Positions 5,101-41,907 of a stretch of 64,000 bases of DNA are shown here, piece by piece; position 1 is the first letter of the stretch, and each line of letters begins with the position of its first letter. The stretch comes from Escherichia phage 236Ecol005PP: the sequence record PP434423.1; one strand, given 5' to 3'. The translations under genes and the position numbers were made by a program. The notes beneath the pieces were generated by a model. The model saw only the letters and a list, made by a program, of their open reading frames with translations. It was not told the origin of the DNA and searched no databases.

Positions 5101-5319
5101 TTATTTCTCTAATATAAAATAAAAATCATCATCTGTTAAATGATACCGATAGTTTAATTCTACACCATTAGATTTAAAAGCGGTATCATACGGATTTTCT
5201 GGATCAATATCAATGTCAAGAGCTAAAACTTCCCTGAGATACATTTTAAGTAAATAGGGAATAGCTTCAACTTCAGGTATTTCTTCCAAGAATCCGGAGA
5301 GGTTAATCGTTAGCCTCAT
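5101..5319 (-). CDS. small hypothetical acidic protein
   Basis: ORF track; 72 aa; abuts gene 55 stop. Confidence 0.45.
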
Positions 5320-31550: not shown

Positions 31551-32147
31551 TTAATTACCACGGGCTGCATTAGCAACGGCGTAAGCGTACTGAACATTAG
31601 CGTCTTTAAACGTACCTTTAGAGGTATCTAGTTCTGCCTTAAAGCCGCCTTTAGCCATAACATCGGCAAATTCTTTACGGAAAGCCATTGCATCAAGACC
31701 TTTCCATGATGATTTGTGCTTGGCGAATTCAAGACCAGCGTAGTTGACAGCCTTAGCTAATTTATTATCAATAACCCATTTACCAGCTTTAGGTACAAAT
31801 ACCGGGCCTTTCTGTTTAGAGAATAGTTTTAAATTCCAGCGACGAAGGTCACCGTCAGCTTTAACAAAAGCTGCGTCCAAGTTACTAGCAACAACATCTT
31901 GGATATGGGCAAATTTAAGCCCATCAGCTTCAATATTTAGGTCGTTACGCCAGCGAAGTCCTTCCCAGGCGAAAGCTTTAAAGTCAGAAGCCTTTGTAGC
32001 TAAATAGCGTTCAATAGGAGCTGTTTTAGCGTCAAAGCCGTTTCCTATGCGGTCAACGCCGTTTCCTCGGTAAGTCCACTCATCTTTATTAATGCCTTTA
32101 GCCTTTTCCACAGAAGCTTCAGCGATAAATTCTTTATACGTTTTCAT
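31551..32147 (-). CDS. Internal protein (capsid-targeted), IPIII-like size
   Basis: 198 aa; N-terminal MKTYKEFIAEA capsid-targeting sequence; Lys/Ala-rich body. Confidence 0.6.
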   Translation of the reverse strand: MKTYKEFIAEASVEKAKGINKDEWTYRGNGVDRIGNGFDAKTAPIERYLATKASDFKAFAWEGLRWRNDLNIEADGLKFAHIQDVVASNLDAAFVKADGDLRRWNLKLFSKQKGPVFVPKAGKWVIDNKLAKAVNYAGLEFAKHKSSWKGLDAMAFRKEFADVMAKGGFKAELDTSKGTFKDANVQYAYAVANAARGN

Positions 32148-32186
32148 GTGTTTCCTTGTTTGTTTTGATAGAATAATTATATCATA

Positions 32187-32468
32187 TTAATACTTAAGCG
32201 TAAACTGTTTAAGCTTTACCGCCAGAAATAATTCCGAAGTTGTTAAAATCATATCCAATATCGTCACATCTACTTTAGGGCTTGCTACAACATAAGCAAT
32301 TTCACTACGTTTTGCATAGGTGTTTATTTCTCTACCATCGCCGCCTAGGAAAGAATACCCATTACGTTTTAATGAGCCAAAATCTTCGGCATCACCAACG
32401 AAAGCTTTAACTTTAAATTTGGGGCCTTTGGCATCTGCTTCAGCGATAAATTCTTGATACATTTTCAT
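32187..32468 (-). CDS. Internal protein (capsid-targeted)
   Basis: 93 aa; N-terminal MKMYQEFIAEA capsid-targeting sequence. Confidence 0.55.
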   Translation of the reverse strand: MKMYQEFIAEADAKGPKFKVKAFVGDAEDFGSLKRNGYSFLGGDGREINTYAKRSEIAYVVASPKVDVTILDMILTTSELFLAVKLKQFTLKY

Positions 32469-32474
32469 TTTTCC

Positions 32475-32888
32475 TTAGTAAATTGATTTACCATAGTATT
32501 TGTACCAAGTAGGGCGTTGAGCAATTTTTTCATCTAAGCGAGCTTGACTTATCGCAATGGACGCTTCGGACGGGACATAATTATTACGAAATTCGACAGG
32601 GATGTCGGAAATATCCTGGACAGTCGTGTCCTTGATTTTGAAACCACGTTTCAAACATTCAGCGATTAGCTCGATTTGACGTAAACGTAAAAATTCGAGT
32701 TTGTCGTAAAAGAATGTTACGTGACCTGTGCCTAAGATAAATGTTGGAGAGATTTTAAAATCCTTTACACGTTTACCGTTTTGAACATGTTTACGGACTG
32801 CACCAAATACGCGTGGTAATTCACGATACTCAGCCATAAGATGTTGGTCGGTCAATTCAGAAACAAGTGTTAAATTGATACGGGTCAT
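32475..32888 (-). CDS. denV: Endonuclease V (pyrimidine-dimer DNA glycosylase)
   Basis: 137 aa from [12 protein letters not shown]...; matches T4 DenV as recalled. Confidence 0.9.
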
Positions 32889-32915
32889 AATTTCCTCCAA
32901 GTAGTCGATGAATGT

Positions 32916-32944
32916 ATAGTATCAAAACCCTTGGAGGAAGTAAA
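32916..32944 (-). promoter_or_regulatory. T4-type early promoter upstream of denV
   Basis: minus TTTACT / 17 nt / TACTAT. Confidence 0.45.
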
Positions 32945-32947
32945 CAA

Positions 32948-34188
<1,241 letters not shown>

Positions 34189-37785: not shown

Positions 37786-37862
37786 TTGGCCAGGGTGAAA
37801 GGATTCTAACCTTTAACCTGCGGTTTAGAGGACCGCTACTCTATACAATTGAGTTACACCCC
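37786..37862 (-). tRNA. tRNA-Arg (anticodon UCU), CCA encoded
   Basis: manual cloverleaf: acceptor CGGGGUG/CACCCUG, D ACUC/GAGU, anticodon stem GCGGU/ACCGC loop CCUCUAA, T-arm AAAGG-UUAGAAU-CCUUU. Confidence 0.75.
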
Positions 37863-37987
37863 GTAATTAGTTCACAGCAATACCTACTCCAACAATCAAG
37901 ATGTCTTCACACGAAATTAAGAGAAGAGTGATCAGTTCAACCACTATAATCGCGTCAAGTAGATATTAATGTGACAACTGTCACAAG

Positions 37988-38062
37988 TTTGGCGGACATG
38001 CATGGATTCGAACCATGGACCAATTGATTAACAGTCAACTGCTCTACCACTGAGCTACACAT
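37988..38062 (-). tRNA. tRNA-Asn (anticodon GUU), CCA encoded
   Basis: manual cloverleaf: acceptor GGAUGUG/CAUGUCC, D GCUC-AGUGGUA-GAGC, anticodon loop CUGUUAA, T-arm CAUGG-UUCGAAU-CCAUG. Confidence 0.75.
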
Positions 38063-38066
38063 CCAA

Positions 38067-38153
38067 ATTGGTGGGGAGTGATGGAGTCGAACCACCCGAG
38101 TCGCAATGACAATGGATTTACAGTCCACACCGCTACCTCTACGGGATAACTCC
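38067..38153 (-). tRNA. tRNA-Tyr (anticodon GUA), type II long variable arm, CCA encoded
   Basis: acceptor GGGGAGU/ACUCCCC, anticodon stem GUGGA/UCCAU loop CUGUAAA, variable arm, T-loop UUCGACU. Confidence 0.7.
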
Positions 38154-38165
38154 CCTAATTCGTAA

Positions 38166-38240
38166 TTTGGTGGCCCTGGGTGGAATTGAACCACCATCTG
38201 GCGATTATGAGTCGCTTGCTTGAACCTTCCAGCTACAGGG
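38166..38240 (-). tRNA. tRNA with CAU anticodon (Ile-lysidine type as in T4, or Met)
   Basis: acceptor GGCCCUG/CAGGGCC, anticodon loop CUCAUAA, T-arm GGUGG-UUCAAUU-CCACC. Confidence 0.7.
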
Positions 38241-38241
38241 C

Positions 38242-38317
38242 CTTGGTGCTGATTGACGGAATCGAACCGCCGACCTTCTCATTACAAGTGAGTTGCTCTA
38301 CCTACTGAGCTAAATCA
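38242..38317 (-). tRNA. tRNA-Thr (anticodon UGU)
   Basis: acceptor GCUGAUU/AAUCAGC, D GCUC-AGUAGGUA-GAGC, anticodon loop CUUGUAA, T-loop UUCGAUU; 1 nt from CAU tRNA (dimer). Confidence 0.75.
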
Positions 38318-38323
38318 GCAAAA

Positions 38324-38413
38324 ACTGGCGGAGGCGATAGGATTTGAACCTATGAGTCGCCGGAGCGACTGCCGGTTTTCAAGACCGGTGCATTAAACCA
38401 CTCTGCCACGCCT
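38324..38413 (-). tRNA. tRNA-Ser (anticodon UGA), type II
   Basis: acceptor GGAGGCG/CGCCUCC, anticodon stem CCGGU/ACCGG loop CUUGAAA, long variable arm, T-loop UUCAAAU. Confidence 0.75.
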
Positions 38414-38416
38414 CCA

Positions 38417-38489
38417 GTCTCCGCGGCAGGATTTGAACCTGCGACATTCTGCTCCCAAAGCAGACGCTCTACCAAACTGAGCTACACGG
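38417..38489 (-). tRNA. tRNA-Pro (anticodon UGG), CCA not encoded
   Basis: acceptor CUCCGUG/CGCGGAG, D GCUC-AGUUUGGUA-GAGC, anticodon loop UUUGGGA, T-loop UUCAAAU; 3 nt upstream of tRNA-Ser (dimer). Confidence 0.7.
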
Positions 38490-38499
38490 AGTAAATTAA

Positions 38500-38573
<74 letters not shown>

Positions 38574-38579
38574 GCAAAC

Positions 38580-38666
38580 TTTGGTACGAGAAGTGGGACT
38601 CGAACCCACAAGGAAATCATTCCGCAGCATTTTAAGTGCTGTGCCTTTACCAATTTGACCATTCTC
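38580..38666 (-). tRNA. tRNA-Leu (anticodon UAA), type II
   Basis: acceptor GCGAGAA/UUCUCGU, anticodon stem CAGCA/UGCUG loop CUUAAAA, long variable arm, T-arm GUGGG-UUCGAGU-CCCAC. Confidence 0.75.
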
Positions 38667-38667
38667 G

Positions 38668-38740
38668 CGCTGGGAATAAAGGACTCGAACCTTTGCATCT
38701 AGCAGTCAAAGTGCTATGCCTTATCAACTTGGCTAATTCC
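38668..38740 (-). tRNA. tRNA-Gln (anticodon UUG), CCA not encoded
   Basis: acceptor UGGGAAU/AUUCCCA, anticodon stem UAGCA/UGCUA loop CUUUGAC, T-arm AAAGG-UUCGAGU-CCUUU; 1 nt upstream of tRNA-Leu (dimer). Confidence 0.7.
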
Positions 38741-38839
38741 CAATTATTAACAAAGGCTCTCAAGCAAGAACCCTTGATGATAGAGGGTATTAATCAGTGC
38801 GATATGAGTTAATAATAACAAATAATTCTTAAAGCATAT

Positions 38840-39129: not shown

Positions 39130-39519
39130 TCAGCCTTCATCAACAATAGTATGCGTATTGGCATTTACGATTTGCCACCAATCAAAGCGATTAGAACCAT
39201 AATCTGGTTTGTTTTCATTTTCTTTGATAATGTCACGAAGTTCATCTTCAGTAGCGGCTTTCGCGATTAAATCAGCATATCCACCACGAGGATAATAATT
39301 ATCACCTGCAAAAAGTAAAAAGTTTGGTTTAATGTCATTGAACTCTTCAAGAGTAATAACTTTTCCTGACGGTTGAACAATCTCTACATATTTATACCCC
39401 AATTTTTGAGCAGCATCTACTGCTTCAAGCAAAGTATCATGAGCCCATCCAATTTGACAACCTGGCTTTTCAGATGGATTAGCCTGATAATCCGCATACA
39501 CTTTGTACATTCTATTCAC
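39130..39519 (-). CDS. hypothetical protein
   Basis: ORF track; 129 aa. Confidence 0.5.
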   Translation of the reverse strand: MNRMYKVYADYQANPSEKPGCQIGWAHDTLLEAVDAAQKLGYKYVEIVQPSGKVITLEEFNDIKPNFLLFAGDNYYPRGGYADLIAKAATEDELRDIIKENENKPDYGSNRFDWWQIVNANTHTIVDEG

Positions 39520-39697
39520 CTTTAGAAATTTTATCCATAACGATAGCGATTAAACCAATTAAAAATGCTACTACAAGTGAAAACACATTTTCTGCTGTAG
39601 TTAATAATCCGCATATAAATCCAACAAACATTGAAAAACTAAAAGCGGAAGCAGAAATTGCAATAGCAACATTTCGAATTAATTCACAACGTTTCAT
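39512..39697 (-). CDS. small membrane protein
   Basis: 61 aa; two hydrophobic segments. Confidence 0.45.
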   Translation of the reverse strand: MKRCELIRNVAIAISASAFSFSMFVGFICGLLTTAENVFSLVVAFLIGLIAIVMDKISKGE

Positions 39698-39725
39698 TTT
39701 ATTCTCCTCTGTAGTTGATAGGGTA

Positions 39726-39754
39726 ATAGTATCACTACCCTATCTAAAAGTAAA
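39726..39754 (-). promoter_or_regulatory. T4-type early promoter (33-nt module repeated at 40107)
   Basis: minus TTTACT / 17 nt / TACTAT; plus-strand string taatagtatcactaccctatctaaaagtaaact recurs. Confidence 0.5.
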
Positions 39755-39767
39755 CTGTTTTTATAAA

Positions 39768-40076
39768 CTATTTTATTCCGCGTGATGCAATTGTATTCTG
39801 TCGTTTAGCACCAGTTTGTTTAAAGTCATGATTGTCGATTTGATCGGTACGAGCAACTCCGAATGATGATTTAATCTTAGCTTTAGATCCTTTAGTTATA
39901 GAAATAAACATCTCGGAAGCCCCTTTCTTAAAGTCCGAAGCAATTACTTCAACACCGTTCTTAGCAAGTGACTTCAGAATTGCCTCCGCGTATTCATCGT
40001 CAAGACTCGCCTGAGTATTAATAACGAATGTCTTTGGCGCAGCCGCTTCATTGATAAATTCTTTAAATGTTTTCAT
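39768..40076 (-). CDS. Internal protein (capsid-targeted), second copy-slot next to ipI locus
   Basis: 102 aa; N-terminal MKTFKEFINEA capsid-targeting sequence; own early promoter. Confidence 0.55.
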   Translation of the reverse strand: MKTFKEFINEAAAPKTFVINTQASLDDEYAEAILKSLAKNGVEVIASDFKKGASEMFISITKGSKAKIKSSFGVARTDQIDNHDFKQTGAKRQNTIASRGIK

Positions 40077-40106
40077 TTTATTTTCCTAATTAATTTTGAT
40101 GAGATA

Positions 40107-40135
40107 ATAGTATCACTACCCTATCTAAAAGTAAA
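40107..40135 (-). promoter_or_regulatory. T4-type early promoter (repeat of 39726 module)
   Basis: identical 33-nt core to 39724-39756. Confidence 0.5.
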
Positions 40136-40136
40136 C

Positions 40137-40409
40137 TCATTTTAAATAAATTGCGTATTTTTTATAGCCACCAGGCTCGTGTCGAAGACCCCTATCATTA
40201 GCAAAACGCTCAATGTTGTTAATTTGATTCTGGTCAAGTTCAGAGATGTCAAACACGAAATAGTTACGTTTGTTACCAACTGTTACATAGTCAGTTAAAT
40301 CAATACCATATAGGTAATTGATGTCAGCAATCATAGTCTTGACAGCTTTGCTAATTTTTACTTTTTCGTTAAAAGTAGCTTCATTGATAAATTCTTTAAA
40401 TGTTTTCAT
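40137..40409 (-). CDS. Internal protein at the ipI position (capsid-targeted)
   Basis: 90 aa; MKTFKEFINEA capsid-targeting sequence; adjacent to 57B as ipI is in T4, but body sequence does not match what I recall of T4 IPI. Confidence 0.55.
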   Translation of the reverse strand: MKTFKEFINEATFNEKVKISKAVKTMIADINYLYGIDLTDYVTVGNKRNYFVFDISELDQNQINNIERFANDRGLRHEPGGYKKYAIYLK

Positions 40410-40442
40410 TTTATCCTATCACTCATTTGTTTTGATATGGTA

Positions 40443-40471
40443 ATAGTATCACAACTAAAACCCTGTGTAAA
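40443..40471 (-). promoter_or_regulatory. T4-type early promoter
   Basis: minus TTTACA / 17 nt / TACTAT(TA). Confidence 0.45.
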
Positions 40472-40484
40472 TAACTTTGTGAAA

Positions 40485-41181
<697 letters not shown>

Positions 41182-41182
<1 letters not shown>

Positions 41183-41907
41183 TATAGTACCTTTAGTGTA
41201 TTTTTAATTTTAGAAAAAAGTTCTTCAAGAGAACCATCGTTTGTAATTACTAAATCGCCATCACGAATTGGCAATCCAGCTTCTGTAATATGAGTATCAT
41301 TGGATTTTTGACCAGGACGAACTACATGAATTACTGTAGCACCCATCGCCCTAGCCGCATCCATTTCATGATCTTGACGAGTATCAGGAACGATATAATA
41401 ATCATAACCTGAGTTAAATTTATCAAGATAATCTAAAGCAAATAATTTTACCCAATACATGCGGTCGAAGTTATTAACAATCAAATCCGTACCTAGGGCT
41501 TGCATCAGACGACGGACTGACCATTGATCTTCAATATTATTTATAACGTCAGCAATCTTGTTAAATGCTACGAAAGTAACTGATTCTTTTCCTTCGTCAT
41601 CAAAAACAAACACGCCTTTAATTGGGCTTTTACTATTAAGATAGCAAAATGCTTGTTCCATAATCGTAATTACTTCTAATTTAGTCAGATTCAAATTAGT
41701 CTCACGATCATAGTCAATTCCTTCAAACTCTTTACGAGTTAAACAAGGATAGTCAGTGTTTGCTGCAAATACGCCCCATGCATAAGCCAATGCATCTTTA
41801 ATAGGACCAGCAAGTTGATATTTAACTGCAGAATAATTATTCATGATAAAATCTGCAGTAGTATCTTTTCCACTACGCTTTACACCGCTTAAAAAGATTA
41901 GTTTCAT
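41182..41907 (-). CDS. 1: Deoxynucleoside monophosphate kinase gp1
   Basis: 241 aa; P-loop GVKRSGKDT; T4 order 57A-1-3-2-4. Confidence 0.9.

Follow-up and report, generated by a model that had tools for sequence, protein, structure and literature searches.

Two small neighbouring genes in this phage genome both begin by encoding MKTFKEFINEA and resemble each other nowhere else, and an exact 33-nt repeat lies on either side of one of them. How did genes so alike at their start and so unlike thereafter come to stand next to each other? Our analysis of the window, by which we mean the whole 64-kb stretch of DNA, indicates that this is very probably a hypervariable ipI locus of a Tequatrovirus that holds an Ip9 and an Ip7 cassette, exchanged by homologous recombination at conserved segments. 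Every gene in this part of the window is on the minus strand; in transcription order, gene 1 (dNMP kinase) and then 57A lie 5′ of 57B, and the features from there on are:

40940..40485, minus strand: 57B, which forms the conserved left edge of the ipI locus, placed by synteny with RB32, HMD-9 and T4
40410..40484, minus strand: 57B/Ip9 intergenic region, an early-promoter-like element followed by a 5′UTR with a ribosome-binding site (RBS)
40409..40137, minus strand: Ip9 orthologue of 90 aa, the first of the two ORFs, with matches to phrog_7673 and RB15 Ip9
40077..40136, minus strand: Ip9/Ip7 intergenic region of 60 nt, a promoter and a UTR of the 'tatctcatcaaaattaattaggaaaataaa' type
40076..39768, minus strand: Ip7 orthologue of 102 aa, the second of the two ORFs, with matches to phrog_2667 and RB32 Ip7
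39697..39512, minus strand: tRNA.4 homologue, a 61-aa hydrophobic protein and the conserved right border, recognised as an ORF, by synteny and by phrog_1692
3′ of the tRNA.4 homologue, minus strand: two further small ORFs and then a block of ten tRNA genes

In a nucleotide database comparison, the 1-kb region was 98.5% identical to Escherichia phage HMD-9 and was matched in 782 phage records, nearly all from T4-like viruses of enterobacteria; the window belongs to a Tequatrovirus (T4-like phage). The two genes fall within one of the two internal-protein (IP) loci, the one between 57B and tRNA.4, the other being near e/denV. T4 has ipI alone in this slot, between its 57B and trna.4. In the RefSeq record of RB32, the corresponding genes are annotated as Ip9 and Ip7, 'internal head protein', and a third cassette, Ip5, adjoins 57B and according to the record 'replaces ipI'. 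The position between 57B and tRNA.4 and the order of Ip9 before Ip7 agree with those of the Ip7/Ip9 genes of RB15, K3, RB32 and T2. Unlike RB32, this phage has no Ip5 cassette next to 57B, and its ipI locus is without either an Ip5 or an ipI cassette.

The earlier note on this DNA had described two adjacent genes, at 39768..40076 and 40137..40409, that both start with MKTFKEFINEA and diverge completely afterwards, and had added that neither body is that of T4 IPI. The ORFs are as it described them, on the minus strand, and the alignment of Ip9 with Ip7 by BLASTP is restricted to residues 1–11, the MKTFKEFINEA leader. For the 102-aa protein, identity reaches 100% with RB32 Ip7 and 99% with a phage T2 protein, and relatives are encoded in 283 phage records; the 90-aa protein aligns along its entire length with RB15 Ip9 (UniProt Q38376) at 86% identity and shares 88% with an RB33 protein. 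Both matched PHROG families annotated 'internal head protein' (Ip7, phrog_2667, 2.1e-41; Ip9, phrog_7673, 2e-53). Identified by this homology, the 90-aa and 102-aa genes are the named Ip9 and Ip7 of the T-even phages. The similarity of T4 IPI to Ip9 and Ip7 in BLASTP is restricted to the leader, and the statement that neither body is IPI was therefore correct; the two genes do not belong with the IPI homologues, and the T4 ipI body clustered apart, in family c12, among the bodies of related loci. What T4 IPI does share with the genes of this phage is the locus, a similar N-terminus (MKTFKEF, the T4 record giving MKTFKEFTSTT...) and, in its 57B/ipI region, the 'tacctcatcaaaattaattaggaaaataaa' allele that here stands 5′ of Ip7. 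T4 IPI is a small, injected inhibitor of a GmrSD type IV restriction enzyme, and its mature region is unrelated to those of Ip7 and Ip9.

A Pfam scan of Ip7 and Ip9 matched no family, and a sequence search of the PDB returned no match for Ip9 and only a chance-level one for Ip7 (E = 0.02, a DARPin). AlphaFold2 models, computed for families of 14 (Ip7) and 17 (Ip9) clusters from shallow alignments (11 and 16 sequences, respectively, all at least 67% identical), had pLDDT values of 66.6 for Ip7 and 76.0 for Ip9 and predicted generic folds only; in Ip7, residues 12–72 were modelled confidently and the basic C-terminal 29 residues were predicted to be disordered. A literature search on the function of Ip7 and Ip9 found nothing specific to them.

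The shared leader has a known counterpart. According to the review in PMC9026906, the first 10 residues of T4 IPIII are a capsid targeting sequence (CTS; Mullaney & Black 1996) that alone suffices to send even foreign proteins into the prohead core; targeting hinges mainly on residues 4 and 7 and processing on residues 8 and 10, and the gp21 prohead protease cleaves after Glu in L/I-X-E. MKTFKEFINE heads both ORFs and agrees with the CTS motif MKT[Y/F]xEF[I/L]xE. Its Phe4, Phe7, Ile8 and Glu10, followed by Ala11, fit the CTS as a sequence match, with the same 10-residue N-terminal layout as in T4 IPIII: an aromatic residue at position 4, Phe7, Ile8, Glu10 and then Ala. The leader of T4 IPII reads MKTYQEFIAE against MKTFKEFINE here. 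A candidate gp21 site, I8-N9-E10 before Ala11, is present in both proteins as a sequence match only, and cleavage there would leave a predicted mature Ip9 of 80 aa with a pI of 8.9 and a predicted mature Ip7 of 92 aa with a pI of 9.65. By analogy with T4 IPI, IPII and IPIII, the leader would direct each protein into the prohead core, gp21 would cut it after Glu10, between E and A of the motif I-N-E-A, and the mature product, small and basic, would leave the head together with the DNA, most probably neutralising a host defence.

The T4 early promoter has a −35 element GTTTAC, a spacing of about 17–18 nt and an extended −10 element TGnTAnnnT. The corresponding pattern, GTTTAC-N14/15-TGnTAnnnT, had 11 matches on the minus strand of the window and 0 on the plus strand, with 0.1 expected from Markov simulations, and each of the 11 is followed some 25–35 nt on by an RBS and a start codon. 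We used this T4-specific pattern because a generic sigma-70 scan was uninformative (11 sites found, 11.0 expected); the same scan found no terminator-like sites. Around the two genes, three elements have this character:

40105..40137, minus strand: copy 2 of the exact 33-nt repeat, the Ip7 early promoter, with −35 GTTTAC at 40136..40131 and TGATACTAT at 40115..40107
39724..39756, minus strand: copy 1 of the exact 33-nt repeat, the tRNA.4 early promoter, with −35 GTTTAC at 39755..39750 and TGATACTAT at 39734..39726
40472..40467 and 40451..40443, minus strand: the Ip9 promoter-like element, −35 ATTTAC and TGATACTAT, respectively, in a degenerate third copy of the repeat

The identical 33-nt module that the earlier note had reported, TAATAGTATCACTACCCTATCTAAAAGTAAACT, is real, with exactly two occurrences in the 64 kb, at 39724–39756 and 40105–40137; the second had been placed at 40104–40136, one base off. 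Its identity on re-alignment had been set beforehand as a test, and the repeat came through it as exact, with an extra exact repeat of 37 nt found besides. A match to the 33-nt repeat, with up to 3 mismatches allowed, appeared in 0 of 100 dinucleotide-preserving shuffles. At 90% identity the repeat lengthens to 49 nt, and the degenerate third copy (65%) spans 40432–40480, upstream of Ip9. On the minus strand the module reads A-GTTTAC-TTTTAGATAGGGTAG-TGATACTAT-TA and is, judged from its sequence, a T4-type early promoter. The copy at 40105–40137 overlaps the TGA stop codon of Ip9 by one base, and the copy at 39724–39756 serves the tRNA.4 gene and not an internal-protein gene. Each of the two IP genes also appears to have an early promoter of its own, as had been claimed: that of Ip7 matches the GTTTAC pattern, and that of Ip9 is early-promoter-like, with ATTTAC here against GTTTAC in relatives. 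Head-core proteins are needed late in infection. The T4 late promoter TATAAATA was not found directly upstream of either Ip9 or Ip7, and its nearest minus-strand occurrence is inside gene 1, at 41538–41545.

The recurrence of promoter and leader could be explained by functional constraint only, with selection keeping promoter and CTS alike and the variation coming from illegitimate insertion, in the manner of 'morons'. Promoter hexamers and the CTS are indeed known to be constrained by function, and at many junctions in more distant loci the stop codon of one gene overlaps the start codon of the next or a promoter is lacking altogether. The two 33-nt copies, however, are also identical in the 17-nt spacer, a stretch that can vary freely. 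In the nine other early promoters of the window the spacers are unrelated, and the one common to these two therefore points to duplication, beyond mere promoter consensus. The leader is a second obstacle to this explanation. The exact 37-nt repeat, which is absent from the earlier note, covers the end of the RBS and the leader codons:

40378..40414, minus strand: Ip9 copy of the exact 37-nt leader repeat, 'ATAAA' and the first 32 coding bases
40045..40081, minus strand: Ip7 copy of the exact 37-nt leader repeat, 'ATAAA' and the first 32 coding bases

Ip9 of this phage thus bears an Ip7-type leader, identical over 37 nt, whereas Ip9 of RB32, RB15 and most other orthologues begins with MKTYQEFISEA, written in different codons. 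The identity extends to synonymous positions and to residues that differ in other Ip9 orthologues, and the Ip7-type leader on Ip9 reads as a direct footprint of an exchange within the leader. Ip7 lies between the two 33-nt repeats, at a distance of 381 bp from each other, and the body of Ip9 between the two 37-nt leader repeats, at a distance of 333 bp.

We assembled 36 related loci, 33 of them IMG/VR loci retrieved via the homologue of 57B and the others those of RB32, HMD-9 and T4, listed the leader-bearing ORFs between 57B and tRNA.4 in each, and clustered the bodies. Compared in this way across isolates, the slot holds 0–3 leader-bearing genes, whose bodies fall into at least 15 families with no relation to one another, and Ip9 and Ip7 are found in either order (L and c numbers are our labels for loci and body families). 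Among the combinations seen, Ip9 stands alone in L006 and Ip7 in L024, L025 and L030. The order Ip9→Ip7 is found in this window, HMD-9, L023 and L002, the reverse order Ip7→Ip9 in L004, and Ip5→Ip9→Ip7 in RB32; other combinations are c3→Ip9, c2→Ip7 and c14→Ip9→Ip7.

The DNA between the genes is mixed too. The UTR allele 'tacctcatcaaaattaattaggaaaataaa' stands 5′ of Ip5, ipI, Ip7 or Ip9, depending on the phage, and 'taccctatcaactactgaggagaataaa' stands 5′ of tRNA.4 in most close relatives and 5′ of Ip9 in RB32. The allele '...ccctatcaaaacaaatgagtgattggagaataaa' is 5′ of Ip9 in this phage and HMD-9 and 5′ of tRNA.4 in L006 and L010–L015, and the trailer 'gtttacttttaRatRgggtag' is 3′ of Ip9, Ip7 or a member of family c8. 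The switches between alleles are located at the conserved −10 core and at the leader. On these patterns, promoter, UTR and leader segments appear to re-assort independently of the gene bodies. The varied slot content and the mosaic intergenic DNA support the cassette array built by recombination that the earlier note had proposed, the recombination being inferred from the mosaic patterns. One and the same UTR or trailer allele can accompany one body in one phage and another body in the next, the switch falling at the conserved −10 core, and this too is hard to reconcile with functional constraint only, which we consider very unlikely as the explanation of the locus.

The same comparison bears on a local tandem duplication followed by divergence, in which Ip9 and Ip7 would be paralogues that kept a constrained leader and promoter as their bodies drifted. 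Such an origin would suit two adjacent genes of the same orientation and similar size, with an identical leader and promoter module. It would, however, have left bodies without any similarity, and with different topologies in the predicted structures, beside a flanking non-coding repeat that is 100% identical, and would thus require an impossibly uneven divergence. Moreover, related phages have one gene and lack the other, combine either of them with different partners, or carry the two in the opposite order, and Ip7 and Ip9 each have a conserved orthologue family of their own. We find this account hardly credible.

Cassettes also seem to have reached, or come from, the other IP locus of the genome:

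31551..33229, minus strand: second IP locus, with genes at 33229..32948, 32468..32187 and 32147..31551, interleaved with denV

The CTS motif heads all three genes of this e/denV locus. One of them is Ip5-like, with 48% identity to RB32 Ip5, which in RB32 adjoins 57B, and the 93-aa gene at 32468 has 42% identity to a family that adjoins 57B in three of the related loci (L020, L021 and L028). Going by these similarities, cassettes move between the two IP loci as well.

The −10 box of the early promoters is a further conserved segment, and at one of them it is enclosed by a perfect inverted repeat:

39717..39744, minus strand: −10 box of the tRNA.4 promoter between the arms of a perfect 9-bp inverted repeat, GATAGGGTA / TACCCTATC

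The hairpin at the tRNA.4 promoter had a DNA folding energy of −7.1 kcal/mol (z = −2.1), and the Ip7 and Ip9 promoter copies gave no stable fold (z = 0.09 and 0.20, respectively). At the Ip9/Ip7 junction, the 5′ arm ATAGGGTA is of one type and the 3′ arm TATCTCAT of another, which suggests that the junction is a hybrid element; mismatched arms and the lack of a fold are as expected after a crossover in the loop. Most elements in the related loci have an inverted repeat in the same register, with 0.59 of the positions paired against 0.27–0.41 in shifted registers, and the arms vary by element type yet stay complementary (GGGTA/TACCC, GGGCT/AGCCC, GGGTT/AACCC, GGGAT/ATCCC and GGACT/AGTCC). In the fixed register, covariation was weakly positive, with 0.59 paired against 0.55 for shuffled partners and 7 of 1000 shuffles reaching the observed value, because the element types have loops of unequal length and 3′ arms that are alike. 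The covariation of the hairpin arms is thus suggestive only.

The cassettes might instead be moved by a dedicated site-specific system, with the hairpin as the target of a homing endonuclease or of a recombinase like those of integrons. In favour are the inverted repeats found around the −10 box in most elements of the locus, with arms that vary yet remain complementary, and the stem-loop-binding protein about which PMC2839356 speculates for promoter-early stem-loops. The probability of such a system is slight in the extreme: no recombinase or homing-endonuclease gene was found in or beside the locus among the window ORFs and their PHROG and Pfam matches, the tRNA region has no ORF of the size of segB, which is present in T4 and RB32 (ORF sizes, not families, being compared), and the hairpin is absent or mismatched at the Ip9/Ip7 junction.

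Exchange by homologous recombination, the reading that we prefer, would operate on self-contained units. A cassette would consist of an early promoter, beginning at or just past the upstream stop codon, a 5′UTR with an RBS, about 33 nt of CTS codons and a body unrelated to that of the other cassette. Short homologies for the general homologous recombination of the phage would lie in two conserved segments, the −10 core together with the inverted repeat around it and the codons of the leader; recombination there could add, remove, reorder or trade cassettes, whether between two phages or between one IP locus and the other. The 33-nt and 37-nt repeat pairs would be footprints of past exchanges and possible substrates for the next. 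Recombination in T4 is said to need less than 50 bp of homology (Singer 1982, as cited in PMC2839356), and no special enzyme would therefore be required. Two additions to this scheme are conjectures that we put forward tentatively and consider rather unlikely: that the −10 inverted repeat is a preferred crossover point, the promoter doubling as a recombination site in a way comparable to the attC of integrons, and, separately, that Ip7 and Ip9 each inactivate some defence of the host, such as one specific GmrSD variant. If the first of these were correct, the Ip9/Ip7 junction would be a fossil of such an exchange.

The cassette interpretation of the IP loci has already been published, and the two genes have already been named, in the nomenclature of Repoila et al. 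1994. As represented in PMC12373910, PMC2839356 and PMC4122927, Repoila et al. 1994 reported the conserved leader and the conserved flanking transcription and translation signals and advanced the hypothesis of shuffling. By the account in PMC2839356, Repoila et al. found 'PeSL-like sequences' at two IP loci, with T4 early promoters and weaker, AT-rich stem-loops, and the same paper regards the elements of the IP loci as analogues, not homologues, of PeSLs. PeSLs, or promoter-early stem-loops, are mobile regulatory cassettes of RB49/phi1 and other T4-like phages (Arbiol 2010, PMC2839356; Comeau 2014, PMC4122927), for which a mechanistic model with excised mini-circles has been shown (PMC2839356). 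The elements in this window resemble them in part, in combining an early promoter and an RBS, at one copy with a stable inverted repeat, in their association with hyperplastic regions, and in that flanking copies could excise the gene that they enclose. Taken from stop codon to ATG as in the composite PeSL element, 3 of 3 junctions have the promoter and the RBS, and the perfect 9-bp stem is found only at the tRNA.4 copy. Unlike those of PeSLs, the stems here are AT-rich (GATAGGGTA/TACCCTATC) and accompany T4 early promoters, with no polyG/polyC, in place of a sigma-70-like promoter with a G–C-rich stem, and one of the two exact 33-nt copies is without a stable stem.

The IP loci show, in textbook fashion, how a phage can maintain a small stock of interchangeable anti-defence proteins for injection. 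The T4 proteins Ip1, Ip2 and Ip3 are injected, and each inhibits its own GmrSD type IV restriction enzyme, without cross-protection (PMC12373910); as that paper presents the field, these three are the only ones with known targets among the 'at least 10' IPs of Repoila et al. Since each of the three blocks a different GmrSD, an inventory of cassettes may help to predict host range. In this window, the practical value lies in correct annotation, with the two genes assigned to Ip9 and Ip7 and the product of 57B matching the Pfam family Acb1 (anti-CBASS; PF23474, 4.7e-60).

The features specific to this genome are minor, namely the lack of an Ip5 or ipI cassette, the converted leader of Ip9 and the placement of the exact repeats. 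The last can be set against RB32, in whose record Ip7 is described as 'similar to RB15 and K3 Ip7 ... flanked by 43 bp direct repeat, along with Ip9'. That 43-bp repeat consists of the −10 element, the UTR and ATGAAAC, is distinct from the 33-nt module and flanks the pair of Ip9 and Ip7, whereas here the longest exact flanking repeats enclose Ip7 alone (33 nt). The leader of Ip9 differs from that of RB32 in the same comparison (MKTFKEFINEA here, not MKTYQEFISEA), and the window adds a clean example of the homogenisation of leader and promoter.

The -10 box is bracketed by an inverted repeat in most promoters of the internal-protein locus across the window (the copy at 39717-39744) and the related 57B-tRNA.4 loci L001-L036, and the sequence of the arms varies by element type with complementarity between them kept. 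At the Ip9-Ip7 junction, the intergenic promoter region between the two genes, the arms are mismatched. Over the whole window, the T4 early-promoter pattern GTTTAC-N14/15-TGnTAnnnT gave 11 matches on the minus strand and none on the plus strand, against 0.1 expected, and several of the 11, such as those at 32945 and 19818, have a spacer complementary to the RBS region that follows. Upstream of Ip9, the promoter has ATTTAC as its -35 element (40467-40472, minus strand), whereas the same site is GTTTAC in HMD-9, RB32, T4 and other relatives; the substitution may mean that this phage expresses Ip9 more weakly at the early stage. Head-core proteins are required late. The late-promoter consensus TATAAATA was not found directly upstream of Ip9 or Ip7 (39698-40484, minus strand), the nearest upstream occurrence on that strand being at 41538-41545, within gene 1.

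Two cases among the relatives bear marks of rearrangement. The 77-aa protein P0014 of Escherichia phage OLB35, annotated as 'ip7 protein', has no leader and is a fusion in which the middle of Ip7 (approximately residues 29-72) is followed by the C-terminal third of Ip9 (approximately residues 58-90); it looks like the product of a deletion that joined an Ip7->Ip9 pair. In the related locus L016, the segment of the Ip9-Ip7 junction (5174-5251) comprising the -10 box and the 3' arm is tandemly duplicated, with two copies of gatactattacctcatcaa, a further rearrangement footprint within a promoter.

The following features lie elsewhere in the window or beside the cassettes.

31551-33714, minus strand: second internal-protein locus, with e, an Ip5-like gene (93 aa), denV, a 93-aa internal-protein gene and ipIII, in that order
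32187-32468, minus strand: 93-aa leader-bearing ORF of the second internal-protein locus
37787-38742, minus strand: ten tRNA genes (Arg, Asn, Tyr, Met-CAT, Thr, Ser, Pro, Gly, Leu, Gln)
40485-40940, minus strand: gene 57B, left neighbour of the cassettes, Pfam PF23474 'Anti-CBASS protein Acb1'

The gene order of the second locus differs from that of T4, which is e, ipIII, ipII and denV. The Ip5-like product shows 48% identity to Ip5 of RB32, where the gene occupies the other internal-protein locus rather than the e/denV region. The 93-aa ORF at 32187-32468 was ruled out as T4 ipII, as the alignment is confined to the leader, and it shares 42% identity with a family adjoining 57B in three of the related loci (L020, L021 and L028). 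Its homology and PHROG match end at approximately residue 60-66, and its C-terminus extends into the ipIII promoter (GTTTAC); the ORF may have undergone truncation or a frameshift.

The ten tRNA genes compare with eight in T4. In T4 and RB32, the homing-endonuclease gene segB lies between tRNA-Arg and the remaining tRNAs, whereas none was seen there in the window in the list of ORFs of the tRNA region, judged by ORF size alone. Gene 57B, labelled 'RNA ligase' in most phage records, matched Acb1 over its full length in a Pfam scan (4.7e-60), so that, on this match, an anti-defence gene directly adjoins the cassettes of proteins predicted to be injected.
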